Source: Spirochaetota bacterium (GTDB taxonomy: Bacteria > Spirochaetota > UBA4802 > JAFGDQ01). Taken from it: 64,000 bases of DNA. The stretch covers positions 14,742 to 78,741 of the forward strand of contig JAZDKB010000044.1 in the NCBI GenBank assembly GCA_043803405.1, read 5' to 3'. Positions 4,662 through 23,424 of this stretch are shown here, piece after piece. Position 1 is the stretch's first letter. Each line of letters begins with the position of its first letter. The position numbers and the translations under genes were made by a program. The notes below the pieces were generated by a model. It ran no database searches. It had not been told where the DNA came from and was given only the letters and a program-made list of their open reading frames with translations.

Positions 4662-4705
4662 AATATATAAGTTCAATTTTTAGCCGAATCGTCACAAAAA
4701 AAATG
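4662..4705 (-). promoter_or_regulatory. Left arm of a 44-bp perfect inverted repeat; candidate ECF promoter for the RCC1 operon
   Basis: Exact reverse complement of 4824-4867; contains TGTGACGATT-N12-GAACTTA reading toward the RCC1 gene. Confidence 0.65.
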
Positions 4706-4823
4706 TGTTTTGGGTTTATAATGAATGCTATACGGAGTGTAATTAACGGTATATGAAGGAATTATTTTATGATTGCAATTTTTTGTTACTCATCTCTCAT
4801 ATAAATAATTTTATGAAAAGAGT

Positions 4824-4867
4824 CATTTTTTTTGTGACGATTCGGCTAAAAATTGAACTTATATATT
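4824..4867 (+). promoter_or_regulatory. Right arm of the 44-bp inverted repeat; candidate ECF promoter for the FecR-like operon
   Basis: tgtgacgatt cggctaaaaatt gaactta; same motif and spacing upstream of the ECF sigma gene. Confidence 0.65.
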
Positions 4868-4895
4868 GGATAAGAAAGAGAGGTCTTACCATTTG

Positions 4896-4933
4896 ACCGC
4901 AGAGGCGCAGGTTAATTTTTGCGTCTCTGCGGT
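4896..4933. repeat. REP-like hairpin in the leader of the FecR-like gene
   Basis: accgcagaggcgca-N10-tgcgtctctgcggt. Confidence 0.6.
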
Positions 4934-4961
4934 TACTCTTTACTTTACCAGGGAAGGAAAT

Positions 4962-5864
4962 ATGAAAAAAATAAATTGTATGATATTTGCCTTTATTATC
5001 ATTCTGTTTATTTTTAACGGCTGCGCTTTTAAGGCAAGCGAAGACGCCAGGATAATATTTATAATGGAAGGTGGTGAAATTACTCACAGCGACGGCAAAA
5101 AAGAGCCTGCTGCGCTTAAAATGCTTGTGCGGAAGGGCGATACAATAAAAACCGGCTCCGGATTTATCATGCTTCAGATAGGGGACGACATACTTACAAG
5201 AATAGAGCCCAACTCGACAGTGCAAATGGCAAAGCTATTTGAAGGCGAAGAGACAAGGCTTGCGCTCGACGACGGCCAGATTATATCGCGCATTAAAAAG
5301 CTGAGAAGGAATTCCTTTATTATAAAAACGCCGACAGCAACGGCTTCGGTAAGGGGCACGCAGTACAGCGTGTCGTATTACAAAAACCGCTCCGTGCTTG
5401 CAGTGAAAGAGGGCAGGGTACAGATTGACATTAAAGAGAAGAGCGGAGAAAAGCAGAAAATGGTTGAAGCCGGAAATACGATGGTCATTAACAAGGACCA
5501 GATGAGGAGCATTAATGAGTTTGAAGCTCTTGAAATAGATAAGCTTTCGCAGATTCCTTACAGCACTGAAAGAGAGCTTAAAGGAGATGACGCGTACAAG
5601 GATGTAGCCAGAATAGCTGAAGAGCAGGAACAGATGCTCTATAAAGAAATAGTAGCCAAAGGCGGCCCGATACCTAAAACGCACCGCGAAATGCTGAAAA
5701 AATTCGGGTACATTAATAGGGTGAATCTTTACAACAACAAGTATTATACAGGCATAATAATTTCGCGCGGCAGAGACGTGCTTATAATGACTCTCGACGG
5801 GATCGAATCAGTTCCAGCGAAGCAGATAAGGAACGTTAAACGCGCAAGGAATGTAGAGGAATAA
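4962..5864 (+). CDS. FecR-domain lipoprotein (LipL45-like) with a small C-terminal beta domain
   Basis: Lipobox FNGC; FecR motifs GDTIKTG, IEPNS, IKTPTATASVRGT, VKEGRV; start at ATG 4962 behind ggaagga. Confidence 0.85.
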   Translation: MKKINCMIFAFIIILFIFNGCAFKASEDARIIFIMEGGEITHSDGKKEPAALKMLVRKGDTIKTGSGFIMLQIGDDILTRIEPNSTVQMAKLFEGEETRLALDDGQIISRIKKLRRNSFIIKTPTATASVRGTQYSVSYYKNRSVLAVKEGRVQIDIKEKSGEKQKMVEAGNTMVINKDQMRSINEFEALEIDKLSQIPYSTERELKGDDAYKDVARIAEEQEQMLYKEIVAKGGPIPKTHREMLKKFGYINRVNLYNNKYYTGIIISRGRDVLIMTLDGIESVPAKQIRNVKRARNVEE

Positions 5865-5875
5865 AAAAAACCATA

Positions 5876-6002
5876 TCCCCCTTCCGGGCATAACCCCTTT
5901 CCGGCCTTCGGCCGGTTTTCCCCCTTAACAGGGGGAATAACCTGTGCAGCATAGGTTATTCCCCCTGTTAAGGGGGAGATGTCGCGTAGCGACAGAGGGG
6001 GT
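5876..6002. repeat. Intergenic REP-like palindromic element
   Basis: 25-bp perfect inverted repeat tcccccttaacagggggaataacct / aggttattccccctgttaaggggga (5919-5977) with small flanking hairpins. Confidence 0.75.
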
Positions 6003-6053
6003 TTTAAAGAGCACGGGTTAGGAGGGTAATGTTACAACACAAAAAGAGGCGTT

Positions 6054-7475
6054 ATGAAAAAACAAACAAAGATCTCTCTCTTGATTTTTTTCTTCTTTAT
6101 CATGGCAAACACAGCTTTTGCAGAATACGTGTTTTTACGGGACGGTTCAATCGTTAAATGCAAAATCGAAAGTGAGACTGCGGCAACTATTACTGCGCGG
6201 CTTGCGGACGGCAAACAAATGACGATCAGCCCTAAAAACGTTATACGTATTCTATACACAGAGCTTTACATGGGTAAGATATTTATAAATAAAACCGATG
6301 GAACAGTAATAGAAGCATACATGGTAGATGAGGATCAGACTACTTATACATTGAGAAAAGAACTGTACAAGCCGCAGGAATTTATAATTAAGCGCGACGA
6401 AGTTCTTTTTACTACGCGCAAAAATCCTTCGGGACTTATCGGGAAAGCAAAGGATGACAGAATTGAAATTACATGGAAAGCCCCGTATACTCCTGTTAAT
6501 AATTATAAAGTTTATTTTAGAAGCACCGGCGAGTTCAAGCTTCATGGTACAACAGGAAGCACAAGCTATACTTTAAAAGGGCTGCGCGGCAGCACTCATT
6601 ACACTATTAAAGTTACAGCGATCGACAAACAGGGAGATGAGTCGCTGCCTACAAATGAATTTAAGATTAAGACAGAGAACAAGCCTCCGGATTCGCCCGG
6701 TTACGTTAGAGCGTCTGTTAAACCCGATAAAAGCGGCCAGAAAATGACTGCGAAGATTACATGGAAGGCAGCCTTTGACGCGGACGGATCTATTACCGGC
6801 TACCGTATATACAGATCGGATGTTAAGGGCTATACACAGGTTGGCGAGACGAACAAAAATACGTACGAAATAAAAAATCTTGATGCAGATAAAAGCTATC
6901 GCTATGCAGTGCGGTCAATTGATGACAAGAACCTCGAATCGGAAAACAGCAGGCTGGTTGCGGCAACGCTTCTCAAGGGATACGAAGCCGGAGTGGAGTT
7001 CAGCTACATTAAGCCATTCGGTGATTTTAAGAAGATAAACGAATCCGGGTTCGGGGGGCTCGTCAGCTTCTCAAAGACTGACGCGCTGTTTTACGATATG
7101 GTTATCGGGCTTGCGGTCGGTTACTGGAAGTTCAGCGGAGCAACCGACGTAGACTCGTCGTACATGATTCCCTTAATGGCAACAGCGACGTACAGATACG
7201 AAGCGTTCGATTCGTTCTTTATCGCGCCCAGAGTGGCGCTCGGGATGAGCTACAACAGTGTAAGCTACTACTGGGAATCCCCGTCCTTTACAGGCACAAA
7301 AGAGAAAAAATCCAGAAGCGGTATTGAGCCAATTGTAATGGCAGGATTATCTTTTAATTATGAGTTCGCAGATTACTGGACAGTCGGTCTGGGGGCGAAC
7401 TACGGCTTTGTTTATGAGACAGACGGGCTAATGAACTTTGTAACCGGCAGCCTTACTGCTGCAAGAAAATTTTAG
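6054..7475 (+). CDS. Secreted protein: two LA_0442/LA_0875-like N-terminal domains, two fibronectin type III domains, C-terminal outer-membrane beta-barrel
   Basis: Signal peptide ending AFA; EYVFLRDGSIVKCKI; FN3 motifs (ITWKA..YKVY..LRGSTHYTIKVTAID..ES); ~170-aa amphipathic beta C-terminus ending ARKF. Confidence 0.8.
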   Translation: MKKQTKISLLIFFFFIMANTAFAEYVFLRDGSIVKCKIESETAATITARLADGKQMTISPKNVIRILYTELYMGKIFINKTDGTVIEAYMVDEDQTTYTLRKELYKPQEFIIKRDEVLFTTRKNPSGLIGKAKDDRIEITWKAPYTPVNNYKVYFRSTGEFKLHGTTGSTSYTLKGLRGSTHYTIKVTAIDKQGDESLPTNEFKIKTENKPPDSPGYVRASVKPDKSGQKMTAKITWKAAFDADGSITGYRIYRSDVKGYTQVGETNKNTYEIKNLDADKSYRYAVRSIDDKNLESENSRLVAATLLKGYEAGVEFSYIKPFGDFKKINESGFGGLVSFSKTDALFYDMVIGLAVGYWKFSGATDVDSSYMIPLMATATYRYEAFDSFFIAPRVALGMSYNSVSYYWESPSFTGTKEKKSRSGIEPIVMAGLSFNYEFADYWTVGLGANYGFVYETDGLMNFVTGSLTAARKF

Positions 7476-7498
7476 TTCGAACTATCGAGAGAGAATTC

Positions 7499-8614
7499 AT
7501 GAAAACATTATTTAAGATATTGATGGCTTTGTTTGCTTTGACATTTGCAGGCTGTGGAGACACATATAACGATGTACTTAATGATCTGGAAGAAGAGTAT
7601 AAATATTTCCTCGCAATATTTAATTCCCCTAATGCCGGTGGCAGATATATTTCAACTTTTTCGTTAAATTCAGATGGAGCCTTGAGTCCGGCATTTGAAT
7701 CAACAGATTATTCAGCTGCAGGCACATACCCGGACGCACATCCAAATGGGAAATATTTATATGGTCTAATTTCAGATACAGCAAAGTTAAACGTATATAC
7801 TGTCAGCGATGAAGGAATCTTGAGTTTGTCTTCAACCGCAGATACCGGTACATATCCTTATGTAGTAAAAGTACACCCATCCGGTAAATATGTGTATGTT
7901 TCTAACAGCAGCGGTTATTCCATATCAATGTACATAGTTAATGCTGATGGAACATTGACAAGCAATGGAACACTTTCTATAGGAAGTCCTTACAGACCGC
8001 GTAGAATGTCGTTTCATCCTTCAGGAAATTATCTCTATGTTGCAATTATATATCCTACCTGGAACGCAAGTTATTTTTCGTCGTTCAGTGTGAATAATGA
8101 TGGGACTTTAACTCCAGTCGAATCACTAGTGGAAGTAATTACTGGTACTCCTTCAATAACCACATTTGATATTGCAGTACATCCTAACGGACAGTTCCTC
8201 TATGTGACACAAAGCAATGCGGATATTTATAAATATAAGATTGAGAATGATGGAACTACCAGCGCCAAATTAAATGCAGGGAGTTCCGGGAGCAGCAATG
8301 TTAGTTTAGCTATTCATCCTAATGGAAATTATTTATATGCTATTGGTTATAATATTTTGACAAACTACCAGATCAATCAAACAGATGGTACTTTATCATC
8401 TATTAGTGGCTTCATTGCTACTGGTGAAAATGAAGCTGTCGTTCATCCAAATGGCAAGTATCTTTACAAAACAGATTACAGCAACAGTGCCATTCAGTGC
8501 TACACAATAAACGGGAATGGTTCAATTGATAATTCAAATATGATTAGTTATCAAATAACCGATTATATCTATTACCCTTCTCACCTTGTCCTGTTCAGAA
8601 AGAAAAGCGGTTAA
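7499..8614 (+). CDS. Lactonase/YVTN-like 7-bladed beta-propeller lipoprotein
   Basis: Lipobox FAGC; repeated HP(N/S)G(K/N/Q)(Y/F)LYV and Y.(I/V)N.DGTL blades. Confidence 0.85.
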   Translation: MKTLFKILMALFALTFAGCGDTYNDVLNDLEEEYKYFLAIFNSPNAGGRYISTFSLNSDGALSPAFESTDYSAAGTYPDAHPNGKYLYGLISDTAKLNVYTVSDEGILSLSSTADTGTYPYVVKVHPSGKYVYVSNSSGYSISMYIVNADGTLTSNGTLSIGSPYRPRRMSFHPSGNYLYVAIIYPTWNASYFSSFSVNNDGTLTPVESLVEVITGTPSITTFDIAVHPNGQFLYVTQSNADIYKYKIENDGTTSAKLNAGSSGSSNVSLAIHPNGNYLYAIGYNILTNYQINQTDGTLSSISGFIATGENEAVVHPNGKYLYKTDYSNSAIQCYTINGNGSIDNSNMISYQITDYIYYPSHLVLFRKKSG

Positions 8615-8636
8615 ATTTTTCAATTAAAGAGCATTT

Positions 8637-9935
8637 ATGAAAACACTCATCAAAACAACAATATTGCTATTAGGTATAAGTTTCAGCAGCTGCTGGAACA
8701 TGTTCAACGATACGATAGATGATCTTGGGAAAACTGTTTCACCTGAAAGCATTACTGCCTTTTCAATAGAAGAACCAACCAGCGGTGTACCGGTTAACGG
8801 AATTATTAGCGGAGTGAATATAACAGTATCGCTTCCGGAGGGAGTATCACTTACTAATTTAATTGCGACATTTACCCATACAGGAACGGAACTAAGAATA
8901 GGAAGCACCGTACAGGTAAGCGGTGTAACAGCTAATAATTTTGCGACTTCCCAGTTATACATATTATATGATTCGAATGGTCTAACCAAAAATTATATGG
9001 TCAATGTCCGTACTAAAAGCTGGACAGCAAAAACAAGCGGGTTGCCTGTAAGCGGTACAGAATGGTCGTCAATTACTTCTTCATCCGACGGTAATAGACT
9101 GGCAGCAGCGATATCCAGTTATGGAGATGGCATATATGTATCTGCAAACGGAGGTACAGATTGGACACATTTAACTACTATAAGCGGAGTATCACGCTCT
9201 ATTGCTTCGTTGGCTGACGGAACATGTCTTTCAATCGCAGCAGGCTGGGGTGATATGGATCCAGACTATGTATATACCTCGCTAGATTCCGGATTATCAT
9301 GGACAACTCATAACGCCGCTGTAGGGGGATCTAACGAATGGTCATCCATTGCGTCATCATCAGACGGCACTTATGTAATTGCAGCACAAAGCAGAAACAC
9401 GGATGGAGACGGCTATATCTATATTGGTGAATATGACGGCGATACCTGGGCATGGGATCAGACTCAACCAGCAATACTAAGCTGGAAAGGCGTTGCTTCA
9501 TCAAGTACCGGATTATATATGGTTGCTGTAGCCGACGGCGGGAATATTTATACTTCTGTCAATGGCGGATCAAACTGGACATCCAGAGAATCGGTGCGGG
9601 CGTGGAGCTCGGTAGCTTCATCATCAAATGGAACAATTCTATATGCAACAGTATATGGCGGTCAAATTTACAGATCAATAAACAGCGGAGTTAACTGGAC
9701 TTCAATAAATGCTTCAAATCAGAACTGGAAGTCTATTGCCTGCTCTAGTGACGGGACTACAGTTGTTGCAGCAGTTGAAGGAGGAACTATTGTATCATCC
9801 ATAAACAGCGGTACGAACTGGATAAGTCATTCAAGTGCCGGCTCACACGACTGGAGGTCAGTAACAATGCCAGCAGATGGAAGCAGATTTGCTGCAGTTG
9901 CTTATAATGAAAGATATGTTTATATTTATGACTAA
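8637..9935 (+). CDS. Lipoprotein with an Ig-like domain and a BNR/Asp-box beta-propeller
   Basis: Lipobox FSSC; ITAFSI..ITVSLP.G..LTNLIATF Ig-like part; repeats W.S(I/V)ASSSDG and IY.S.N.G.NWT. Confidence 0.8.
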   Translation: MKTLIKTTILLLGISFSSCWNMFNDTIDDLGKTVSPESITAFSIEEPTSGVPVNGIISGVNITVSLPEGVSLTNLIATFTHTGTELRIGSTVQVSGVTANNFATSQLYILYDSNGLTKNYMVNVRTKSWTAKTSGLPVSGTEWSSITSSSDGNRLAAAISSYGDGIYVSANGGTDWTHLTTISGVSRSIASLADGTCLSIAAGWGDMDPDYVYTSLDSGLSWTTHNAAVGGSNEWSSIASSSDGTYVIAAQSRNTDGDGYIYIGEYDGDTWAWDQTQPAILSWKGVASSSTGLYMVAVADGGNIYTSVNGGSNWTSRESVRAWSSVASSSNGTILYATVYGGQIYRSINSGVNWTSINASNQNWKSIACSSDGTTVVAAVEGGTIVSSINSGTNWISHSSAGSHDWRSVTMPADGSRFAAVAYNERYVYIYD

Positions 9936-10040
9936 ATGGCTTGTTTATAATTTATAATTTTTACAACAAGCTATGCAGACTAAAACAAACTGTTAAATAA
10001 AGTTATTTCTAAAAATAAATATCTTAACTGTGGAGATCTT

Positions 10041-11153
10041 ATGAAAATATTCCTTAAAGTGATTATATTTCTAATTGTTTTGTATTCCACAGGCTGCTGG
10101 AACATGTATAACGATACGATAGATGATCAAGAAGCAGAATATCAGTTTTATTTAGCAATAGTTAATTCAATGATGAATTACAAAATTTCGATTGTTTCCA
10201 TAGAGTCAACCACACTCAGTAAATCATCACAAACATCAACAGGTAGTACCCAAGTAGACTATGTCGCTGCACACCCGACAGGAAATTATCTATATGTTAC
10301 TAATCCGGGTAGTCAAAGGATTTTAATGTATAAAGTAGTTACCAATGGTACACTTGAAGTGTTAGGTACAGGTTTTATTAATACAACAGATGGAGGGGGA
10401 CCAGGTGGGACACCTGGCGTAATAAAAGTGCATCCATCTGGAAATTATGCTTTTGTCGCTAATGCAGGTACTAGTTTTAATATTTCAAGGTATCTAATTG
10501 ATAGTGCAGGTACTCTTACTTTTCAAGATTACATAAGTCCAGGAGCGTCAGCAACATCATCTAGGATGGTTATTGATAAGTCAGCAACATATCTATATTG
10601 GGTTAGTAACAATGCTGGTGGTAATGTTTTACAACAAGTTGAAATTAGTGGTTCGCTAATTATAGATAAAACAGTAAGTTATGCAAGTAATACTCCAAGA
10701 GATGTTGCCGTGCATCCAAATGGACAATATATATATGTGACTGTAGACGGAACTATATATTTATACTATAGTAATGACATACCTACCTCACATGGATCTA
10801 TTGCTGGCGATGGTATGTTAACTATTCATCCTAATGGTAAATTCCTCTATACTGACGATGATTCCAATGTTAAAGTATATCAAATCAATGCAGATGGAAC
10901 ATTAACCGATCTTAATAACTCAACTCCGGTACAAGCCGATGTTAAAGATTTTATTATTGACACTAATGGTAATTACTTAATTGCATCTGGTCGAGGTAGT
11001 GATTCTATTGAATATTTAAAAATAAATGCAGATGGAACAACTAGCCCTATACAATATTATGATGGTGGTTTTGGTCATTATCCCAATGCTTTAGATGGAT
11101 ATAGATCAAGTCCATGTGGTCTAGCTTTAATCAACAGACAAAAAATCAAATAA
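10041..11153 (+). CDS. Lactonase-like beta-propeller lipoprotein, paralog of 7499-8614
   Basis: Lipobox STGC; HP(T/S/N)GNYLYV and INADGTL repeats. Confidence 0.85.
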   Translation: MKIFLKVIIFLIVLYSTGCWNMYNDTIDDQEAEYQFYLAIVNSMMNYKISIVSIESTTLSKSSQTSTGSTQVDYVAAHPTGNYLYVTNPGSQRILMYKVVTNGTLEVLGTGFINTTDGGGPGGTPGVIKVHPSGNYAFVANAGTSFNISRYLIDSAGTLTFQDYISPGASATSSRMVIDKSATYLYWVSNNAGGNVLQQVEISGSLIIDKTVSYASNTPRDVAVHPNGQYIYVTVDGTIYLYYSNDIPTSHGSIAGDGMLTIHPNGKFLYTDDDSNVKVYQINADGTLTDLNNSTPVQADVKDFIIDTNGNYLIASGRGSDSIEYLKINADGTTSPIQYYDGGFGHYPNALDGYRSSPCGLALINRQKIK

Positions 11154-11232
11154 AATGTTATCTTCTTCTTAAAGAAAAAACAATGTAGCTTGTGAGTATA
11201 ACCGCGGGCTTTCTATTCGCAGCAGCACAACC

Positions 11233-11898
11233 TCACCGGTATAATAACGTAAGCGTAAAATTCCTCCCATCTTGCGTTAAATAATAAACCATCGTACTTC
11301 CGATTAATTTCATGGCCTTTTTTCTGCAAGGCCTTTGTAATCTTTCGATATTCGAAAAATGGGCACTCTTTGTATTCCTCAAAAATAAGCCGCTTATATT
11401 GTTCATCTTCCTCGTTCTCAATCGGTTTATAGTAGTATATGGATCATGAAATACCTAAAAGCTCGCATTGCCTCCTGATCGATAATATTTGATGTTCTGG
11501 CTCTATCATGTCTTTACTTACCGGAAGAACGGATCCAACTTTTTTTTTAGCCATTCATTCTCAATCTTCATTATCCCTATCTGCCGTTACAGCTCGTCTC
11601 GTTCTTTATCCGTTTCTTTTGTTTTTTTCTCCTCTCCTTTTTCAAATATTTCCGGTAGATTCTCAAGCACCTTCTTCTTCCATTGTCCTACCAGATTCGG
11701 ATGTACGCTGTATTCCGATGCTATTTCAACTATTGTTTTTTCCCCCTTAATCGCTTCAAGGGCTACTCTTGCTTTAAATTTACTGTCATGTTGTTTTTTC
11801 TTCATGCTCTTATTTTCGTCTCCTTATTATTCTTTTCTAAGGAGTTTTCCCACTTATCCTATTCCTGTTTTACTGTCCAGTTTTCGGGGAGCATTATA
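11233..11898 (-). mobile_element. IS3-family insertion sequence remnant (orfA with a premature stop, truncated orfB)
   Basis: orfA MKKKQHDSKFKARVALEAIKGEKTI..RDEL*RQIG..ENEWLKKK; A8G slippery site near 11540; orfB start SIRRQCELLGIS*SIYYYKP; terminal repeat tataatgctccccgaaaactggacag at 11873-11898; no DDE domain. Confidence 0.8.
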
Positions 11899-12300: not shown

Positions 12301-14014
12301 GGGGATGTCTCAAAATCAGACCCTTATTTTTCAATATGTAAAATATTCCATTATTTCAATAATTAACAAAAACTTCTGTTTTAGACCGGGATTTTCATCA
12401 AATTGTGAGCAATCGAGATCAATCCCCACTCTATATTTACTTTTTCAATCCCTCTAAGCAAAAATCTTTTGAACAATTTGTTATGCTTAATCTGGCCAAA
12501 AACAGATTCTACTTCAACTCCTCTCTTTTTGCGCAAGACTGTTCCTTTTTCACTATTTAAATTTTCTCTGGCCTTGCCTTTTAAATAATTCAGCCGATGA
12601 CTTACTTGTATTCTTCTGTTGTTTGCAGATTTATGACATTGCTCCCGAAACGTGCATTCATTACAATCTTCACATTCATAAAGATCCCTATGCGTCTTAT
12701 AGCCATTTGCTGTTATTATTTCTCTGGTTTCGGAATATTTTAATTTCTTTTCTCCAGGACAACTGTACTCGTTTTTCTCCGAGTCATACGGTAAGTTTTC
12801 AACTCTGAACTTGTTCTCTTTAAATTTCTTTGTCTTCTCAATGTGATAATAATTGTACTTTACATAATTTCCTAATTCATTACTTTCTATATACTCGTAA
12901 TTTTCTTCACTGCCGTATCCTGCATCAGTTATTATATTTTCCGGCAGTCTGTTTTTGAATTCTGTTTTTACTCTCTCTAAATGCGGGATAAAACATGATG
13001 TATCTCCTGCTTGCTGATGGATGCTGTATCCAACTATAAATTGATTCTCTGTCCCTATCTGTACATTGTATCCGGGTTTCGCCTGTCCATTTTTCTGATC
13101 TTCTTTCATCCTCATGAAAGTGGCATCTGTGTCTGTCTTTGAATAACTGTTCCTGTCCCCTAATTTTTCAGCCTGATCTTCATACTTTTCCAGCTTTGGC
13201 AGATAATCTTTTTCCAGAATTTTCACTGCCTTTTTCAAATCCTTATCCTCAGGTTTCTCCCGCAGTCTTTCATTCATCTCTTCAATTCGTTTTTTAAGTG
13301 CTTCTGAATCTATATTCGCGTCTTCTCCCGTTTCTTCAAGGTCTTTGTCTTTGTACTCGGATTCCTCTGCTTCATTCTCCCTGTCTATCTCTACCAGCAA
13401 TGCTTTTACTTTCTTTTCCAGATTCTCCCTGTATCTCTTGTTTGATTTTTTCCATACCCATGTATATTTATTTGCATTTGCCTCTATCTTTGTACCATCA
13501 AGAAAATAGTTCTCTAACTTTATCACCTGCATTTCTTCAAGTATTTCTATCAGCGAATAGAACAATTCATCTATTGTTGCTTTCAGCCGGGATGTCCTGA
13601 ATCTGTTTATTGTCCGGAAGTCAGGCCGGTTCATCCCGCATATCCACATGAAATGGATATTCTCTCGTAATGCTTTTGCTATTCTCCTTGATGAATATAT
13701 TCTCTGCGTATATGCATATAGTATTGCTTTCAACATCATCTTCGGATGATAGCTGCTTGTCCCCACCATTTTATATTGCTTTACAAGGTTCGATATATCC
13801 ATCGATTCTATTATCGAATTTACTAATCTTACTAAATTCCCTTGTGGAATCATATCATCAAGGCTTGGTGGAAATAGCATTCCTTGATGCTGATTATATT
13901 CTTTAAATGTCGGTTCTATCCTTAATTTTTTCTTTTTCATGATGTCACATATATTATATGTGCATCATTTTTCAATTAATTATATTGCAAATGATCGCTT
14001 TTTGGGACAGCCCC
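12301..14014 (-). mobile_element. IS1182-family insertion sequence, apparently intact
   Basis: Terminal inverted repeats ggggatgtctcaaaa / ttttgggacagcccc (13/15), both flanked by tta; single transposase ORF. Confidence 0.85.
12381..13940 (-). CDS. IS1182-family DDE transposase
   Basis: YHPKMMLK..YAY..SSRRI, PDFRTINRFR, FLDGTKIEANANKY, SKTDTDATFMRMKED, DAGYGSEENY, VESVFGQIK. Confidence 0.95.
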   Translation of the reverse strand: MKKKKLRIEPTFKEYNQHQGMLFPPSLDDMIPQGNLVRLVNSIIESMDISNLVKQYKMVGTSSYHPKMMLKAILYAYTQRIYSSRRIAKALRENIHFMWICGMNRPDFRTINRFRTSRLKATIDELFYSLIEILEEMQVIKLENYFLDGTKIEANANKYTWVWKKSNKRYRENLEKKVKALLVEIDRENEAEESEYKDKDLEETGEDANIDSEALKKRIEEMNERLREKPEDKDLKKAVKILEKDYLPKLEKYEDQAEKLGDRNSYSKTDTDATFMRMKEDQKNGQAKPGYNVQIGTENQFIVGYSIHQQAGDTSCFIPHLERVKTEFKNRLPENIITDAGYGSEENYEYIESNELGNYVKYNYYHIEKTKKFKENKFRVENLPYDSEKNEYSCPGEKKLKYSETREIITANGYKTHRDLYECEDCNECTFREQCHKSANNRRIQVSHRLNYLKGKARENLNSEKGTVLRKKRGVEVESVFGQIKHNKLFKRFLLRGIEKVNIEWGLISIAHNLMKIPV

Positions 14015-15739: not shown

Positions 15740-15760
15740 ACTTTACAGAGGTAGAAAATA

Positions 15761-15991
15761 ATGCAGATAGCAAAACTTTTTCAAAATGGCCGGAGTCAGG
15801 CCGTCAGGCTTCCAAAAGAATTTAAATTCAATGGTGATGAAGTCTATATTCAAAAACACGGAGAAGCTGTAATCCTCATTCCGCACAAAAAAGCCTGGAA
15901 AGTTTTTCTTGAAGGTCTTAACGGATTCTCCGACGATTTTATGGAGAAAGGGAGAGATCAGGGTAAAGATCAAGAGCGGGAAAAATTTTAA
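15761..15991 (+). CDS. vapB: VapB (AbrB-fold) antitoxin
   Basis: AKLFQNGRSQAVRLPKEF; FS.DFM...RDQ...QERE. Confidence 0.92.
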   Translation: MQIAKLFQNGRSQAVRLPKEFKFNGDEVYIQKHGEAVILIPHKKAWKVFLEGLNGFSDDFMEKGRDQGKDQEREKF

Positions 15992-16395
15992 TGTACTTGT
16001 TAGATACAAATATCTGTATTTATGCGATTAATAAGAAACCAGAGCTGATACTGAATAGAATAAAAAAGGAAATTCATAAGGGTATTTTTATTTCAGCGTT
16101 GACGATAGCTGAACTTGAGTATGGCGTTGAAAACAGCTCTAGAATCGAAGAAAATCGGGTTGCATTATTAAAGTTTCTTTCCATTTTTAATATTCTGGCT
16201 TTTGATGATTTAGACCCCATTGCTTATGGCAAATTGAAATCAAAGTTAAAAAGAACAGGCAATATAATTGGCCCCATTGATATGCTACTTGCGGCGCAGG
16301 CTATTAGCAGAGGTTTAATTCTGGTAACAAATAATACCAAAGAATTTAGTCGAATAGAAGGTCTAAAAATAGAAGATTGGACACTGCCATTATAG
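15991..16395 (+). CDS. vapC: VapC PIN-domain toxin
   Basis: YLLDTNICI, ELEYG, IGPIDMLLAAQA, LVTNNTKEF.RI.GL..EDW; overlaps the vapB stop. Confidence 0.95.
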   Translation: MYLLDTNICIYAINKKPELILNRIKKEIHKGIFISALTIAELEYGVENSSRIEENRVALLKFLSIFNILAFDDLDPIAYGKLKSKLKRTGNIIGPIDMLLAAQAISRGLILVTNNTKEFSRIEGLKIEDWTLPL

Positions 16396-16509
16396 CAAAG
16401 AAAAAATATTGGATAATGATGTTAAAAATCAAGTATTAAATAAAATTTACTAATTTATAACTCACAGATCTATGGCAGAAGCTTTCTGCTAAAAATGCAC
16501 ACGCAGCCA

Positions 16510-16654
16510 TCTGCACGAAAAAGCAAAGATATTCATAGTCGCACAGACGCGCGTGTACAGCACAGGCTGCAGCGCGCTAGCAGCAGCACGCGCATACTGA
16601 ACAGCACGCGCGTTCGGGCGCGGGGTGCTCAAGAGACGCACGAGAGGGCAGGGG
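16510..16654 (+). repeat. Inter-module repeat R3 (full length)
   Basis: tctgcacgaaaaagc...acagcac...ctcaagagacgcacgagagggcagggg. Confidence 0.85.
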
Positions 16655-16728
16655 TTTAATCAAATAATTCTTATTTATGATAAAATCAATAAAGAACGTA
16701 AAAGCTTATATTACTTTTAAAATTCAAT

Positions 16729-16884
16729 CTATGAACAAGATGATTTTTTATTTTCACATCGTTTCGTATCAATAATGCATTTTCTGTATTCCGGTGCGTT
16801 TTTCTTTGCACCTGTAATCAGTTTTGCTCCATGCTTTTTTAAAAAGCGCTCAATAGTTTTAACATCTGCTTTTCTATTTGCCAT
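16729..16884 (-). CDS. Small basic protein (51 aa), possible partner of 16874-17185
   Basis: MANRKADVKTIERFLKKHGAKLITG...; start overlaps the upstream stop; below the ORF-track cutoff. Confidence 0.4.
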   Translation of the reverse strand: MANRKADVKTIERFLKKHGAKLITGAKKNAPEYRKCIIDTKRCENKKSSCS

Positions 16885-17185
16885 AAAGAAATCTCCAAAT
16901 AATTGCTTTATAATTTGTCTTAAAATCTTCGATAGCCATGTTTAAGCCCGAAGATAAGTCTACCAGAGGGTAGAGAATCTGTCTTTTTTTATTTCCTTTT
17001 GTATTATAAATATCCTTATGAACCGAATTATGAAAACAATCATATCTTTCAATCTCATACCATGAATTTTTATAAAAATATAATAACTTGATAACAAAAT
17101 TAATCACTTCGCCGTTTTCGGTTTCGAAAAATATAATAATTTTAGTAATGTCATCAATAAATATTTCATATATTTTTTCCGGCAT
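16874..17185 (-). CDS. DUF7718/DUF6516-like putative TA toxin
   Basis: 103 aa with W.EIERYDCFH.SVHKD (RYD..H..H motif); TA-island context. Confidence 0.55.
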   Translation of the reverse strand: MPEKIYEIFIDDITKIIIFFETENGEVINFVIKLLYFYKNSWYEIERYDCFHNSVHKDIYNTKGNKKRQILYPLVDLSSGLNMAIEDFKTNYKAIIWRFLYGK

Positions 17186-17298
17186 ATTTCAAATGTAACA
17201 ATTTTTATCTTTGTGTCAATTTATAATTAAAAAATTGTAGAATAAATAAGCAAAGATCATTTAATAGCCTAAGGTTTAAATCGTAAACTATTTATTCG

Positions 17299-17434
17299 CT
17301 GCAGCAAATACAATCTTGCTCATGATAATGCACAGACATATATGTCTGTAAAATACACTGGAACAGCACAGACTGCTTAACAGCACGTATGCCCAGGGGT
17401 GCTGATAGCTGAGAGACGTTCGGAACAGCAGGGG
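17299..17434 (+). repeat. Inter-module repeat R4 (diverged)
   Basis: ctgca..gcacagac..acagcacagactgcttaacagcac..gagagacg..gcagggg. Confidence 0.7.
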
Positions 17435-17453
17435 CGAGGGGAGGGCTGCGATG

Positions 17454-18026
17454 TTATTGTTTATTCAGCTCCATTATCCTGCAGTGCACTCTTATAATAT
17501 TTTCTTTTAAATTATAACTGAAGCAACTTCCCTGACCATAACTATATTTGATTATCTGAATTTTTCCTGTAAATTTTGAGCCTGCCGGACTTTGCAAATA
17601 AATCTTTTCAAATTTCTCATCAGTCAGATCATCATCGGATATTCCGACAAGTTTCTTACTTTTAGTATGGAATTGATAAATTACCACAGGTGCTAATTCC
17701 TCTGCTTTCTCATTAGTTGTTTTACTCGTAATATTACTGGACTGTTTGCATGATGATAAAAATTCATTATTTTTATATATATTATCTTTAACAAGTTTGC
17801 ATAAATTGCTGGTGCTTAACACCTTGCCTGGTCTGATTTCTTTATTCAATATACCGAATGCTTCGTTTCTGAGCTTTTCAGCGCAAATTCCGCAACCTTC
17901 ACTAACGCTATCTGTAAGACGGCTGGTTGCTTCTTCAGGAAGTATAATCAAATCATAAGCGTCTTTACTTTCACCGGCTAACGAACCGCCGAGTATTAAA
18001 ACAATAAGAATAATTTTATATTTCAT
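17454..18026 (-). CDS. Hypothetical secreted protein
   Basis: Hydrophobic N-terminal signal, RBS aggag, CGIC motif. Confidence 0.7.
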   Translation of the reverse strand: MKYKIILIVLILGGSLAGESKDAYDLIILPEEATSRLTDSVSEGCGICAEKLRNEAFGILNKEIRPGKVLSTSNLCKLVKDNIYKNNEFLSSCKQSSNITSKTTNEKAEELAPVVIYQFHTKSKKLVGISDDDLTDEKFEKIYLQSPAGSKFTGKIQIIKYSYGQGSCFSYNLKENIIRVHCRIMELNKQ

Positions 18027-18045
18027 GATAGCTCCTTAATTCTTA

Positions 18046-18834
18046 TTAATTTGTATAATATCCGGAAATAAATTTTTTCAAATTATTTTCATATATATTT
18101 TTGGATTTATAATAACCCGCGTTATGAGAGCCGCTAATCTCACAGAATTCCTTTGGTTCATTTGCCAATTCAAAAAGCCTTACGCCCTGATGGAAAGGGA
18201 TCAGCTCATCATCCCTGCTGTGAATAATAAGCACAGGGCATTTTACTTTCTTTAAATACTCTGCTGTGTTGTATTTATATGTGAGAATGATCAGCGCAGG
18301 AGTACACGAGCAGTTGTGTTTTGCAGCATCCTTCATGCTGGTAAACGACGATTCAACGATCAGCATCCGCGGTTCACGCTTCATCGCGAGCCACGCTGCA
18401 ATTGATCCGCCTAATGATCTTCCATGTATAATGATATTCTTCGGCGGAATTTTCCTTGTATTTACAACATAATTCCATGCCGCTTCAGCATCGAGATATG
18501 TCCCCTGCTCGGATGGAGATCCTTTGTTCATTCCATAACCCCGATAATCGAATACAAGAATATTGTATCCAAGCTTGTTATACATTTTAATTATATCGAG
18601 AAGATGCGAAACGTTTCCTCCATTTCCATGGCAGTAAAGTATAACCGGCTTCCTGACAGATGGAATCCACCATCCGGAAAGAATTATATTATCTACTGTT
18701 TTAAATTCCACCTGCTCATAATGCAGTTCGACATTCTTTGGAGTATATCTCACTTCTTTTTCCGGGAAGAATATAAAAGTCGACTGGCATGAACTTAGCA
18801 GGGAAATGACTAATAATATAATTATTTTTTTCAT
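18046..18834 (-). CDS. Alpha/beta hydrolase (ABHD13/Bem46-like), lipoprotein signal
   Basis: HGNGGN, DYRGYG, G.SLGG nucleophile, HS.DDE.IP, GSHN; LSSC lipobox. Confidence 0.9.
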   Translation of the reverse strand: MKKIIILLVISLLSSCQSTFIFFPEKEVRYTPKNVELHYEQVEFKTVDNIILSGWWIPSVRKPVILYCHGNGGNVSHLLDIIKMYNKLGYNILVFDYRGYGMNKGSPSEQGTYLDAEAAWNYVVNTRKIPPKNIIIHGRSLGGSIAAWLAMKREPRMLIVESSFTSMKDAAKHNCSCTPALIILTYKYNTAEYLKKVKCPVLIIHSRDDELIPFHQGVRLFELANEPKEFCEISGSHNAGYYKSKNIYENNLKKFISGYYTN

Positions 18835-18918
18835 GGATTAATCATCTGTTTTTACTAAGTACAGTCCTACACAAGATAAGGGGCAAAATAAATATAATTA
18901 ATCAAATTCGCTTTTTTA

Positions 18919-19273
18919 ACTCATCCCCCTAACCCCCAGGGATGCCTCATGCTAAATATCTGTTATTATTATTTGCTTTTGGCAATCATACTTGCATACC
19001 ATCTCAATTGCTCTTTCAGCCCCCTAACCCCCTTAAGGGGGCACATTCGGGAAAATATTTATATTATATCTTATATCTTTAATCAGATGTATTATCTTAT
19101 CTGATATTTCACTCTTAATTCGTTGCTTTAAACCTTTTTAGCACTAAAAAAATATTGTCAAATCAACCCCTTTCCAATTATGCCCCCTTCAGGGGGTTAG
19201 GGGGCCGGGAGCATATCCAATTTACAACTAAAAAATTTAGCGTGAGGCATCCCTGGGGGTTAGGGGGGTGAGT
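18919..19273. mobile_element. Nested palindromic element: MITE-type ends around a REP doublet
   Basis: Outer IR 18919-18957 / 19235-19273 (37/39); inner IR 19019-19043 / 19181-19205 (24/25). Confidence 0.75.
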
Positions 19274-19373
19274 CTAAAAGAAATGTTGTAATAAATAACA
19301 CCCCCTAACTTGTGTGGCGCTGTACTAAGAACATATTTCACTATGACTTTACAAGGAGATACGACCAATCATT

Positions 19374-21299
19374 TTAAAAGAACAAATTAAAATTTATTTT
19401 AAATTCGTATTGATGAAAATTATTCTCCAGATGCTTATCAAATATATCCTTTCTGGAGGCGTCTGCAACTATGGCCGTATTTGTGCTGAAGCTGAATCCC
19501 TCTCTAAGAGTAAACGAAAGCTCATTCCTTGTTTCGCCTAAACCGTAATACAAATTCCTTATTATCAGGTTGCTGTTCCAGAAGCCTGTAACTTTTGATA
19601 TTAAACCGGTTGAAGCGCCAATTCCTGCCGCGTAATTATCATTTAGGTCTTTGGCAACGTTTATCTCATAATCAGCCATAACAAAAAATATTCCCGGAAA
19701 ACCCTTATAAGATAAACCTGCTCCTCCATTAAGTTCATATACAAGCTGTTCCTTGCCGTCAAGCAATAGTTTTCTGGATAATCCTGTATCAACTTTCCAT
19801 GAAATTGATCTTATAAAATTATCTCTTGGCGACAGGGAGATAATGTTGATCACATCAACTTTGTTCAGCTCTAATTTCCTGTCGCATGAATAATAGCGGA
19901 GCCCTATGTCTCCGAATACTATCTGGCCGCCTTCAATATAGCCGTCATCAAGGTCAATCAGTGTGTGATAGGCGAAGCGGTAAAGTATCTCCTGAAACAG
20001 ATTGCCGTCTCTGTAGCCGGCTCCAATGCTGGCTCTGTTAGACAAATGGCCTTCATCCGGTCTGGGAGGAATCGGTATCTTGTAATCCTTTTCTCCCTGG
20101 CTGCCAAGTCGGCTTCTGACATTAAGTGTTTTCATAAGGAGAGTTGAATAGCTGTCCTTTGTTATGTCTTCCTTCGTGTATTTATACTGCACATATTCAG
20201 CGACAAGATCGCATATTACTATCTTTTCTTCGTTTGTGATATCTTTTTTTAATATAATATCAGGCTCTTCGGAGCCGTTTATTACTGAAAGAGCCAGCTT
20301 CTGATTTTTACTGTTAAGCAATGATGTTAAATGTTTTATTGTAGCAGATTTTGACGGCCTGTATGCGGCAGATTCAACCATCTGCTTCTTTTTCATTTCT
20401 CTGATCGTATCGATCGGGATTACCCAATTGATGAAGTTGGAATAAAATCTGTCAGACAGTGCGGGCGTAGGCCGTGCTGCGTCAAAGAGGAACAGAATAC
20501 TGTATGAGCAGTTCTCATCAAAAAAATAATAATTGGAATATATATTATTCAGCTCAACGACGTGCAATATCATTTTTATGATCTCATCCTCTTTGAGATT
20601 TAGCTGGTATTCCCAGATGTCCCTGTGATCAAAATCCCTGTATTCCTGGACTTTCGCGTAATATGGCAGTATGGAAAAATAACCCGGATAAAATCCGAAA
20701 AGACCCTTTAAAGCATAGAGCGGACTGAATGTCTCGTTTGTAATTGCGGAATAATTCACCGAATATGAAAGCAGTTTGCTCCTGTTCTCTGTTTCAATGT
20801 TTATAAAAGTGTGTCCATACATTGAGGACGGATTGTTAATATGCGAAGTCGGGAATATTATCTGTGCACTTTTTGGCTTGATCATTTTGATAATATCTTC
20901 AGCATACTTGCATCCTGAATAAGGCAGTTTCGAAGTATCAATTGCGAGCTTTTCTTTTAACCATGTATAACGCGCAATAAACTTGCATATAGCGTTATCT
21001 TCTTCTTTATCCTTTTTTTGAAAAAATCCCCGGATAGTAGCTTCCATCTCGGATTTCGGATTGCGCTTTCCATCAGAGGCAAGGAAAAATTTCGGGTCGT
21101 CGATAAGGCTTTTCACGCTGAAAAAAGTCTTTTTATAATGAAGAAGAATATACCAGTAAGGATCCTGATATAATTTATTTTTATTTGCCTGCCCTATAAG
21201 CTGTTCCATATAGGAGCCATCCCGGGCATTAAGAACAGATGAAAATAAAATGATAATAAGTAATATAATTTTAATGAATAAGTAATGAGATCTTGGCAA
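19374..21299 (-). CDS. DUF4105 (Lnb-like) protein with a C-terminal beta-barrel-like region
   Basis: W..LLHY, FFLA.DG..NP..E, NPSSMYGHT, RDIWEYQL, YYFFDENCS; aromatic C-terminus; TTG start. Confidence 0.8.
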   Translation of the reverse strand: MPRSHYLFIKIILLIIILFSSVLNARDGSYMEQLIGQANKNKLYQDPYWYILLHYKKTFFSVKSLIDDPKFFLASDGKRNPKSEMEATIRGFFQKKDKEEDNAICKFIARYTWLKEKLAIDTSKLPYSGCKYAEDIIKMIKPKSAQIIFPTSHINNPSSMYGHTFINIETENRSKLLSYSVNYSAITNETFSPLYALKGLFGFYPGYFSILPYYAKVQEYRDFDHRDIWEYQLNLKEDEIIKMILHVVELNNIYSNYYFFDENCSYSILFLFDAARPTPALSDRFYSNFINWVIPIDTIREMKKKQMVESAAYRPSKSATIKHLTSLLNSKNQKLALSVINGSEEPDIILKKDITNEEKIVICDLVAEYVQYKYTKEDITKDSYSTLLMKTLNVRSRLGSQGEKDYKIPIPPRPDEGHLSNRASIGAGYRDGNLFQEILYRFAYHTLIDLDDGYIEGGQIVFGDIGLRYYSCDRKLELNKVDVINIISLSPRDNFIRSISWKVDTGLSRKLLLDGKEQLVYELNGGAGLSYKGFPGIFFVMADYEINVAKDLNDNYAAGIGASTGLISKVTGFWNSNLIIRNLYYGLGETRNELSFTLREGFSFSTNTAIVADASRKDIFDKHLENNFHQYEFKINFNLFF

Positions 21300-21338
21300 T
21301 TTATTTTTATTTGGAAATATATTTTGTATTTAAAAAAT

Positions 21339-21380
21339 AAAAAAGGGGATACAGGTTTTATTATAATTCCATATCCCCTT
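21339..21380 (-). terminator. Terminator after the DUF3015 gene
   Basis: aaggggata...tatcccctttttt on the minus strand. Confidence 0.6.
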
Positions 21381-21400
21381 AGTATTTCCATCCATTATAA

Positions 21401-21865
21401 TTAGCTGGATTTCAATACTGATTCGATATTGTTTAAAACATCGTTGTGATTTACTTTTTCAGATGTGAATATTTTTGAGAAATTTGACTGAAGTTTTGAA
21501 TAGAAGGTCGATCTTTCAGTTTCTTTAACCTGCATTAGAACTGCGAATGTGTTCAAATACTCTCCATTGCCTTTAGCAACATCCTTTGCAAGGTTGTCCA
21601 TATTGTCTGCAACGAACTTGTTGATCTGTTCGTTTGACGCAATAGAATTCCATGCCTTGCAGTTTGATGTCCCAGTAGTAATCGCGGAGATTTGGCCGGA
21701 TGTTCCGTTTAATGTTGCAGCGCATGTCTGTGAAAGCAATCCTTCCTTTCCCTGGAAGACTATTGAACCGAGACCGCATCCGTAATTGCTTTGGTCAGCG
21801 TAAAGAGTTGCGCCAAAAGCAATTACAGCTGCGATTGCAACTAAAACAACTAAAAATCTCTTCAT
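21401..21865 (-). CDS. DUF3015-family secreted protein
   Basis: GCGLGS..F, Q..AITTGTSNC, FVADNMDNLAKDVAKGNGEYL. Confidence 0.85.
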   Translation of the reverse strand: MKRFLVVLVAIAAVIAFGATLYADQSNYGCGLGSIVFQGKEGLLSQTCAATLNGTSGQISAITTGTSNCKAWNSIASNEQINKFVADNMDNLAKDVAKGNGEYLNTFAVLMQVKETERSTFYSKLQSNFSKIFTSEKVNHNDVLNNIESVLKSS

Positions 21866-22170
21866 ATTTTAACTCCTTGAAATTAAGATATAAATTTATA
21901 GCGTAAACTAATTATATTTGCGCTATAGATTTCTGTGTTATGTATAAAAAACGGTGTTTTATTAATAATTACACTGCGGAAATGGAGTTCTTTAGCATAG
22001 ATGGGAAACAATTCTTAGTTAAATATGCTCAAAAACATACTATAATTTTTCAGATTTGTCAAGTAGATTATTATAACCAGGAATCAAGCAGATACATGGT
22101 AGCATTAATATTCGTAGTTGGCAAACTACCGGCAGCTGCCGTATAAAGATGTGAGAAACTCAAGGGTAGC

Positions 22171-22200
22171 TAGAACAAGGGGTTGCAACCCCTTGTTCTA
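22171..22200. repeat. Perfect 30-bp palindrome (REP-like)
   Basis: tagaacaaggggttgcaaccccttgttcta. Confidence 0.7.
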
Positions 22201-22289
22201 TGTAATCAGCACCCTCTTCCCTTAATATATAATACATTTGTAACAAGTTTCTCAGAAGTCAGCAAATTTTGTTGACCATACTGTAGAAT

Positions 22290-22853
22290 CTATTTCTCAA
22301 CACGCTTAATCATCTTTATCTGCTTTGCCGGAACGGAGATAGTGCCGTTTGCAGTATTAAGTATGTAGGCCTTGCCCCGTGATTTGATGCTTCCGTAGTA
22401 TTTTTTTCCGCTGTATAAAATAATCTCGTATACGGGAGCTTTTACCTGTTCTTTGGCAGGTTCTATTTTTTTATCCTGAAGTTCAGTTAAAGGATTATTC
22501 TCTTCAGTTATAGAATCGACAGTTTCTTCAACTATAACAGGTATATCCGGCGCTGTATATTGCTTTACAATAACATAAATGCCGCCTGCGGCAGCGCCCG
22601 TTGTGAGCACAGTAGCTGTAATAGCCGCGGCATTGGCAAATGAGACAGCAAACTTAAGTCCAATTTTTCTGAGCCTGAAAATAATAAAAAGCAATAAGCT
22701 GAACCAGATTGAATAAGCGCCGACTTTTTTTAAAGTAGCCCTTAATACTCTGGCGCGCGATTTCAGCATCATTTTCCGCGCGGGCTCAGGTATTGGGTTA
22801 ACAAACTTAAATTTCTCAAAAAGCTTTTCCAGACGGGCAGTTTCTGTTGTCAT
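22290..22853 (-). CDS. Membrane protein coupled to the ECF sigma gene; putative anti-sigma factor
   Basis: 4-nt overlap with the sigma stop; hydrophobic segment(s), acidic/Pro linker, C-terminal domain 20/39 identical to the FecR-like protein C-terminus. Confidence 0.65.
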   Translation of the reverse strand: MTTETARLEKLFEKFKFVNPIPEPARKMMLKSRARVLRATLKKVGAYSIWFSLLLFIIFRLRKIGLKFAVSFANAAAITATVLTTGAAAGGIYVIVKQYTAPDIPVIVEETVDSITEENNPLTELQDKKIEPAKEQVKAPVYEIILYSGKKYYGSIKSRGKAYILNTANGTISVPAKQIKMIKRVEK

Positions 22854-23371
22854 AATATATCCTCAATATGAGCAATGCCCTTTTCCTTCAGAAGCGATGT
22901 AATTCCGGAAGCAAGCTTTGTATACTTGTACTCGACTTTTCTTTTAGTCAGTCCCATTATGTCAGCGGTCTCGGAATAACTGTATTTATGGAATGCAATT
23001 AATTCGAACATGTTTTTTTCTTCCTCATTGGATAAGACTTTGTCCAGCACTTCGCCTATTATGATCCTTGTATCGCGAAAGCCGTTAACAAAGCTGAGAG
23101 CCGCGTCTTCCATAAAGTTTTCTATATTTTCATTACCGGAGTATTTCTCCTTATAATATTTTAACACAAAATTTTTTAATGTCCCGTAAAGCCAGGCTCG
23201 TATGTTCTTTATCTCATCAAGATGATTATAAAGCGCAATGAAAACTTCCTGGCAAATATCTTCAGTATCGTGCTCGGAGCTTATCTTAGTATAAACGGCA
23301 TTAAACACCATCGGATAATAATCGACAAACAGTTTGGAAAAGACATTGCGCTTCCCGGATTTGCTCGACAT
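22850..23371 (-). CDS. ECF-type sigma-70 factor
   Basis: 173 aa; region 2 DTEDICQEVF..L....RAWLYG..KN; region 4 YSYSETADIMGL. Confidence 0.9.
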   Translation of the reverse strand: MSSKSGKRNVFSKLFVDYYPMVFNAVYTKISSEHDTEDICQEVFIALYNHLDEIKNIRAWLYGTLKNFVLKYYKEKYSGNENIENFMEDAALSFVNGFRDTRIIIGEVLDKVLSNEEEKNMFELIAFHKYSYSETADIMGLTKRKVEYKYTKLASGITSLLKEKGIAHIEDIL

Positions 23372-23395
23372 GTGAACTACAGCCTTCTTATTAAT

Positions 23396-23424
23396 TAAGT
23401 TCCCGATTTGTTAAAATCGTCTCA
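23396..23424 (-). promoter_or_regulatory. Candidate autoregulatory ECF promoter
   Basis: Minus strand tgagacgatt ttaacaaatcgg gaactta, ending 25 bp before the sigma ATG; matches the 4.7-4.9 kb motif. Confidence 0.6.

Follow-up and report, generated by a model that had tools for sequence, protein, structure and literature searches.

The 64,000-nucleotide stretch of Spirochaetota DNA analysed here (the window, G000:C44:14742-78741) raises the question of what a two-block element, TGWGACGATT-N12-GAACTTA, does in front of both an extracytoplasmic function (ECF) sigma factor gene and the two arms of an island of surface lipoprotein genes. The genome, G000, comprises 3.98 Mb and is 94% complete; C numbers denote contigs, L numbers loci, and G001 and G002 are genomes of the same genus. 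Judged from sequence, the motif is very likely the promoter element of a predicted ECF regulon. It is also reasonably probable that the sigma factor reading it is the one encoded on C44, and that it would be released from its anti-sigma when the Sm-like domain of the latter changes its docking to a FecR lipoprotein and an outer-membrane barrel protein.

A scan of the whole window finds the exact motif at 4668-4696 (-), 4833-4861 (+) and 23396-23424 (-), against a chance mean of 0.36. The three identically spaced copies described in the first-pass annotation are therefore borne out, as none of 100 shuffles reaches three; no fourth match occurs in the window even with up to three mismatches. One copy does lie shortly upstream of the sigma gene, as that annotation had it, with a measured gap of 24 nt to the ATG at 23371. 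The other two were also correctly placed before both island arms, the right one ending 100 nt 5′ of 4962 and the left one 365 nt 5′ of the likely ATG at 4302, but they are not independent. The regions 4662-4705 (minus strand, with the predicted left-arm promoter) and 4824-4867 (plus strand, with the predicted promoter of the FecR/barrel/lipoprotein operon) are the arms of an inverted repeat of 44 nt, 100% identical, around 118 nt. Because both copies sit in a perfect inverted repeat they share one origin, and the copies in the window have two independent origins rather than three. The repeat was also considered as an invertible switch (4662-4867), which is unlikely to matter, as the same outward promoter lies in both arms; the copies in G001 and G002 are moreover non-identical and far apart.

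The gene behind the third copy (22850-23371, minus strand) encodes a 173-residue protein with Sigma70_r2 and r4_2 domains (PF04542 and PF08281) that scores 58.9 bits with TIGR02937 (cut-off 42.9). Like ECF sigma factors, it consists of sigma2 and sigma4 only, is shorter than about 200 residues and has a bipartite element, with predicted promoter activity, before its own operon. The next reading frame, 22290-22853 (minus strand), overlaps the sigma stop codon and encodes a putative anti-sigma of 187 residues. It consists of a conserved basic N-terminal domain, one likely transmembrane helix at about 70-97 and a C-terminal Sm/Hfq-like domain at about 140-187; a Pfam scan of this protein gave no match, including none to a FecR domain. 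Elsewhere in the genome the sigma factor has paralogues, giving eight ECFs in all with 37-48% identity to the window sigma, and behind each lies a gene whose product shares its N-terminal domain with the anti-sigma.

Genome-wide placement supports the promoter reading. The -35 word TTTGTGACGATY, which holds no -10 information, occurs 22 times in G000, and all 22 copies lie within 400 nt upstream of a gene on the same strand. A crude lipobox pattern is found in 16 of the 22 genes behind them, compared with 188 of 3248 background genes; the binomial P of 8e-16 overstates this enrichment, as the word was drawn from the same genome and several copies are related. All 22 copies also carry CT at one fixed offset, although CT is not part of the search word, and 40 shuffled words gave a mean of 1.2 matches and no lipoprotein genes. 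The reverse reading of the motif, with CGTC as the -10, was rejected: read that way, the copy before the sigma gene would face away from it, and 22/22 words are directed towards genes in the orientation given here.

Grouped by the bases before the common CT, the sites fall into classes. GAACT sites were found upstream in 13 of 13 cases at spacer 12, against 0-1 matches at other spacers (0-3 with a looser -35). In the other classes the upstream fraction is 10/11 for MTGCT, 5/8 for TCGCT, 2/2 for TCACT and 3/3 for ACGCT. The regulon of five lipoproteins first envisaged is thus too small: the 13 GAACT sites comprise two sigma sites and 11 target sites, most of them outside the window and four on C44 to its left; together with those on its other genes, this contig has five further ones. 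Among the targets, those with an annotation belong to the Lcl_C, FGE-sulfatase, RCC1, NHL and other propeller lipoproteins, and 7 of the 21 proteins scanned have no Pfam match.

The sigma genes themselves carry these elements. Those on C44 and C41 are preceded by GAACT, those on C30, C7 and C19 by ATGCT, TCGCT and TCACT, respectively, and that on C27 by an ACGCT element with a weak -35, while the elements on C18 and C39 are divergent. A strict pattern for further C18-class sites found none in the genome; one such site is visible before C18:36680. In the sigma on C30 and its orthologue, just 3-4 nt separate the element from the start, in the fashion of leaderless transcripts. This fits the inferred register of TGTGAC as the -35, 16 nt and GAACTT as the -10, which at 23396-23424 (minus strand) gives a predicted autoregulatory promoter of the ECF operon with TGAGAC as its -35. 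Each of the eight paralogues would read its own -10 variant, and the genome holds an eight-member array with a likely -10 code. The residues after the sigma2 WLYG motif seem to track ACT versus GCT, a pattern that is confounded by kinship and that we do not claim. Two further loci deserve mention. One lipoprotein gene (G000:C12:24953 and 24893, minus strand) has tandem ACGCT and GGACT sites 60 nt apart and could receive input from two sigmas. The C7 sigma (G000:C7:52030-52560) lacks an ATG, GTG or TTG where translation should begin, while its promoter and four target sites are intact, so that it has either a non-canonical start or a damaged gene.

In the two same-genus genomes, the -10 classes track sigma content. 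G001 has orthologues of the C44 (75%), C19 and C18 sigmas together with five GAACT sites, one TAACT and one TCACT; the TCACT site shares a contig with the C19 orthologue. G002 has orthologues of the C44 (83%) and C18 sigmas and only GAACT sites, four in number; reversed-pattern controls gave zero in both genomes. A C41 orthologue was absent from the searches of G001 and G002 (90 and 93% complete), and as both show GAACT sites nonetheless, a C44-type sigma is the likely GAACT reader. The promoter motif is kept 5′ of the orthologous sigma operon in both, and a GAACT-class site also precedes the orthologous FecR gene in both. The earlier proposal of an ECF promoter serving a lipoprotein regulon is therefore strongly backed by genome-wide placement, fixed spacing, the two same-genus genomes and co-occurrence with the sigmas.

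Homologues of the sigma were found in 23 of the 41 genomes of the order that were searched. Among the matches listed in a GTDB scan, the 32 loci with E <= 3e-25 are all spirochaete-labelled, whereas 48 of the 80 match weakly, as ECFs in general do; the relatives of the source genome are labelled Spirochaetes, Spirochaetota or uncultured Leptospirales. In a FastTree phylogeny, a branch with support 99 sets 21 family members apart from 35 other ECFs, a separation that comes with a long-branch warning. The family is thus treated here as a Spirochaetota-restricted clade.

How the sigma might be controlled is suggested by a domain that recurs in the predicted regulon. The first gene of the right arm (4962-5864, plus strand) encodes a 300-residue FecR-domain lipoprotein similar to LipL45 and Lsa33, and its C-terminal domain matches that of the anti-sigma (20/39 identical, E 7e-9; hhalign probability 99.4), so the common domain noticed in the first-pass annotation is real. 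The second gene (6054-7475, plus strand) encodes a 473-residue outer-membrane protein with a signal peptide, whose first N-terminal domain matches those of the anti-sigma (probability 86-91) and of the lipoprotein (95; 54 with the full-length lipoprotein alignment). These values come from independently built alignments; an earlier match of 97.7 was circular, both sets having been drawn from one hidden Markov model, and was replaced. Control comparisons ranged from 0.1 to 57. The first N-terminal domain of the barrel protein is Lepto_7_Nterm of NCBI, and NF047433 scores 41.8 bits on 6054-7475 against a cut-off of 43, and 43.4 bits in the genome search. The two genes are separated by a 29-bp hairpin (5919-5977) with relatives on C15, C18 and C19, the one on C18 also lying inside the paralogous operon; it may be a repetitive extragenic palindromic-like element or an RNA processing signal.

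Structure prediction gives both proteins defined architectures. The barrel protein model (predicted local distance difference test score, pLDDT, 89.8) contains two five-strand domains, two FN3 domains and an 8-stranded β-barrel, which superposes on the NspA, OprF and OmpA barrels with Z 17-19. The lipoprotein model (pLDDT 89.3) can be superposed, over its FecR part, on the signalling domain of PupR (Z 15.4), and the R131, G132 and T133 residues of the GT self-cleavage motif are invariant in 28/28 aligned lipoproteins; cleavage itself is a prediction. Residues 247-300, the lipoprotein copy of the shared domain and the one used for the fold search, return mostly Hfq/Sm/Lsm entries with Z 5-6.8 and a root-mean-square deviation of 1.5-4.6 over 46-54 residues, values of Z under 8 being, according to the tool, possibly due to a merely common arrangement. 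With the whole barrel protein Foldseek gave FN3 entries only, and a wide search listed no Sm for its N-terminal domains, which may still have this fold. An Atlas search with the anti-sigma and the barrel N-terminal region gave only matches under 0.9. A cytoplasmic RNA-binding role for the Sm-like domain of the anti-sigma, which has a net charge of +9 and lies in a protein with two hydrophobic stretches, seems improbable, since exported lipoproteins have this domain at their end and the paralogues hold FecR or CsgG-like domains at the same position.

Gene linkage across loci points the same way. In the window, the FecR and barrel genes are separated from the sigma by 17 kb that include a transposase and a PIN gene. 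They lie within 5 kb of the sigma in G001:C31, are divergent from it with motif copies on both sides in L126, and share one operon with it on C18, where FecR is fused into the anti-sigma. The four-part circuit first proposed, of barrel, FecR lipoprotein, anti-sigma and sigma, gains from these linkages and from the third domain copy on the barrel, while binding among its parts remains a prediction. On C18, a 127-residue protein with one transmembrane segment (G000:C18:42708-43091; L103:2263-2646), which is almost purely Sm-like domain and conserved in relatives, sits between the anti-sigma and the FecR lipoprotein and is a candidate adaptor or anti-anti-sigma.

In six of the eight paralogues, the periplasmic domain of the anti-sigma is instead FlgO/CsgG-like, and the neighbours then carry a CsgG-like domain as well, with a weak barrel match in two of four scanned. 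We compared the domain types over 40 loci (32 fetched and eight from G000; six not typable). A CsgG-type anti-sigma has a CsgG-type neighbour in 24/24 loci, 19 under the position cut-off and five just beyond it, and an Sm-type anti-sigma has an Sm-type barrel within 6 kb in 5/10. No cross combination occurs in the 40 loci. The loci are kin, and so not independent, but on the sigma tree both types occur intermixed.

This layout recalls Pup/Fox signalling, in which the last subdomain of the anti-sigma and the first domain of the receptor are both STN and pair by β-sheet extension, as described in the accessible part of PMC11637429. As the same layout recurs with an Sm-like or CsgG-like domain on both sides, like domains would dock on like domains. 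We therefore propose that the membrane anti-sigma 22290-22853 would hold the sigma 22850-23371, and that its periplasmic Hfq/Sm-like domain would dock on its counterparts in the FecR lipoprotein and the barrel. A change in docking would free this hold and lead to release of the sigma, presumably via intramembrane proteolysis. The genome encodes M50 proteases (five matches), and nothing ties them to 22290-22853. Since the FecR lipoprotein and barrel genes themselves lie in the regulon, their promoter would give positive feedback, and the output would be a switchable set of surface binding lipoproteins with propeller, Lcl_C and FGE-sulfatase folds. As a first guess, the signal would be received at the loops of the barrel, from a ligand or through cell contact.

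Several observations weigh against this proposal. Everything N-terminal of an 8-stranded barrel should be periplasmic, and a periplasmic N-terminal part together with the lack of a TonB link leaves the route for an outside signal unclear. With respect to the shared domain, a control comparison of an anti-sigma domain with FecR strands reached a probability of 57, the second barrel domain has no direct match to the anti-sigma or lipoprotein domain (0.3-0.4), sequence matches to Sm/Hfq reach just E 0.1-1, and the Hfq/Sm Z-scores lie under 8, with biotin-ligase SH3-like domains scoring equally well. Half of the Sm-type loci (5/10), the window among them, lack a barrel within 6 kb, and a FecR/barrel pair on C48, beside a seven-transmembrane LuxR gene, has no motif. 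On the promoter side, the search word comes from the same genome and related loci make the counts overstate independence; paralogue C41, of the CsgG type, has a GAACT site too and may act on the same regulon; the strict motif gives 0-2 matches per genome outside the genus, similar to its control; and a significant upstream motif, by a hand-set score, precedes only 30 of 54 homologous sigma genes.

The alternative that fares best, though we regard it as unlikely, keeps the promoter and the sigma/anti-sigma pair and has the periplasmic module monitor the state of the envelope, such as outer-membrane distance or lipoprotein export, with no outside ligand; the barrel and the FecR lipoprotein would then be feedback partners that stabilise the anti-sigma. 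Such a role would suit a small barrel of the OmpA/NspA type with two FN3 spacers in a genome where the search gives no TonB-coupled transducer and no STN domain, and Leptospira sigX is reported to be up-regulated in an envelope-defect mutant (in the portion of PMC7708080 available to us). Distinct, specific inputs would, however, account better than one general stress for eight paralogues whose -10 classes and barrels are separate, and the annotated targets are binding-type lipoproteins rather than repair functions.

It is quite improbable, in our estimate, that, within a real regulon, the barrel and FecR lipoprotein are merely outputs, for example display or export aids, with the anti-sigma sensing alone and the common domain a product of domain shuffling. 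The position of the window genes, at a distance of 17 kb from the sigma and behind its predicted promoter, is what this would lead one to expect, as is the C48 pair with neither sigma nor motif, and Leptospira FecR lipoproteins have been studied as adhesins (PMC13719327, as far as its accessible text goes). Shuffling accounts poorly for anti-sigma and neighbour domain types that agree in 29 loci with zero cross combinations, and for two types interleaved on the sigma tree. The C48 pair itself (G000:C48:69253-73075; L211), the third FecR-lipoprotein/barrel pair in the genome and divergent from the seven-transmembrane LuxR gene, raises the possibility that the module serves other membrane regulators. 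Finally, there is very little to be said for the motif as an operator of another factor or a by-product of promoter-region duplication: the island has a LuxR-type gene, its two copies agree at all 44 nt and others at up to 40/44, but the motif is non-palindromic and oriented, with two blocks at fixed spacing around a variable spacer, its variants stand before 6/8 sigma genes and co-occur with sigmas across genomes, and the C30 sigma and its orthologue begin just behind it, as would fit a leaderless transcript.

The remaining genes of the predicted regulon in the window are lipoprotein genes. Downstream of the barrel gene on the plus strand lie two β-propeller (lactonase-like) lipoprotein genes (7499-8614 and 10041-11153) and between them one with a weak match to a glycosylhydrolase family model (8637-9935). 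On the left arm (minus strand), an RCC1-repeat lipoprotein gene (2056-4302; the open reading frame finder placed the start at 4356, while the ATG at 4302 has a GGAGG site) is a further predicted member. It is followed by a gene for a putative lipoprotein of 560 residues (240-1922, minus strand) without a Pfam match, whose relatives in G001 and G002 lie behind GAACT-class sites. The stretch from the island to the sigma operon contains genes for a DDE/DUF772 transposase (12381-13940), a PIN-domain toxin (15991-16395) and a DUF7718 protein (16874-17185). An Lnb_N/DUF7840 protein and a DUF3015 protein are encoded on the same strand after the anti-sigma, at 19374-21865, with no motif copy. Further along, the gene run at 40110-50023 reads like one for NADH dehydrogenase (nuo) subunits.

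The closest relative of the system is sigX/Rsx of Leptospira, so that it is not wholly undescribed, as the first-pass annotation had suggested: similar sigX/Rsx/Srp components have been reported, and our literature search, with most subscription journals outside its reach, found no account of this sigma clade or of Sm-type docking. In L. interrogans, sigX/Rsx (LIMLP_03680/03685) appears to be the ECF229s1 pair LIC_12757/LIC_12756, to judge from their lengths (180/350 residues) and the L109 promoter. According to the accessible parts of the respective papers, sigX controls itself and three lipoproteins via TG(A/G)CAC-N15/16-TCGTT (PMC7708080), and LIC_12756 binds LIC_12757, acting as both anti- and pro-sigma (PMC12155086, PMC13118517). 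As far as the available text of PMC12655853 and PMC13118517 goes, no TonB receptor of Leptospira has a signalling extension and no outer-membrane input is named; LIC12758, with its Lepto_7 domain, is proposed as a component from STRING only (PMC13118517). The consulted part of the supplement of PMC7826278 describes ECF208 and ECF229 for Leptospira and Turneriella only.

Both systems combine a spirochaete ECF, a cotranscribed anti-sigma with one transmembrane segment, autoregulation (predicted here) and a small lipoprotein regulon, with a similar TGAC promoter core and the same C-terminal domain on the anti-sigma. In the loci of family f15, which we take as Leptospira from their NF047528 scores and promoter, the anti-sigma ends in this same small domain. 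A Lepto_7_Nterm gene is linked in both, the Leptospira copy adjoining the sigma; a Lepto_7-like neighbour is found in 8/25 short loci, all of the sigX-like subgroup, and in 4/7 longer loci, with a profile seeded with three of these proteins, which NCBIfam matched independently. The differences are as clear. The window sigma falls in a separate clade (branch support 99), and sigmas of its family are separate on the tree from ECFs beside NF047528 anti-sigmas. Its anti-sigma scores 22 bits with NF047528 against a 200-bit cut-off, over the C-terminal 57 positions only (50 bits for paralogue C18), having a different N-terminal domain and no FecR part, which is on a separate lipoprotein. The promoter is TGTGAC-N16-GAACT here, whereas L109 and L112 have the published Leptospira consensus; the partner here is an FN3 and 8-stranded barrel protein; and there are eight paralogues with a likely -10 code, most with a CsgG/FlgO-like domain.

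The domain matching implies that the Lepto_7 N-terminal domain should bind the C-terminal domain of the Leptospira anti-sigma. If so, docking would supply the missing outer-membrane input of sigX through LIC12758. The matching also suggests that Lepto_7 proteins, as well as LipL45 and Lsa33 among the FecR lipoproteins, have a role beyond adhesion. A wider proposal, which we put forward tentatively and which may well not hold, is that spirochaetes share TonB-independent signalling built on barrels, interchangeable Hfq/Sm or CsgG-like docking, a sigma array and a -10 code, and that Leptospira sigX belongs to it via LIC12758. Equally tentatively, this would make the periplasmic Hfq/Sm fold a hetero-oligomeric scaffold and have a code of two to three -10 bases switch separate lipoprotein sets.

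Compared with the classical FecIRA, PupIRB and FoxIRA systems, the window system likewise has an ECF, a membrane anti-sigma, a FecR β-solenoid with a GT motif and, in its regulon, an outer-membrane protein whose N-terminal domain is homologous to the C-terminal domain of the regulator. Unlike them, it has no TonB transducer with STN: STN (PF07660) gave no match in the 94% complete genome, a search whose control rang in 5/14, and none of the four TonB receptors found there has an STN match. One of the four genes (G000:C41:24754-26886) is found on the strand opposite to the C41 sigma operon, two genes away from it. The partner barrel has 8 strands and no plug, the anti-sigma lacks FecR and STN, the FecR fold occurs instead on a lipoprotein of its own with an Hfq/Sm-like domain behind it, the domain that matches is of the Sm/Hfq-like or the CsgG-like type, and the targets are surface lipoproteins, not uptake systems. 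The system thus belongs neither to the sigX/Rsx family nor to classical signalling, but is predicted to work like both.

The array has a counterpart in the sigma-I/RsgI system of Clostridium thermocellum, which, in the accessible part of PMC6056542, comprises eight autoregulated pairs of about 36-45% identity with common promoter cores and a small specificity region. Here too there are eight paralogous sigma/anti-sigma pairs, at 37-48% identity. With its common -35 and variant -10, the array is a natural test bed for crosstalk avoidance among close ECF paralogues, a question that the ECF reclassification leaves open (PMC7826278, in the portion available to us), and a possible source of orthogonal switches. 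The sigma-I pairs are of a different sigma family, and the envelope here has two membranes. Their core elements, a -35 A-tract and a -10 CGAA (PMC6056542, same part), also differ from TGTGAC and RCT, and specificity lies upstream in the -35 there, whereas here the -35 is common to most paralogues and the first -10 bases vary.

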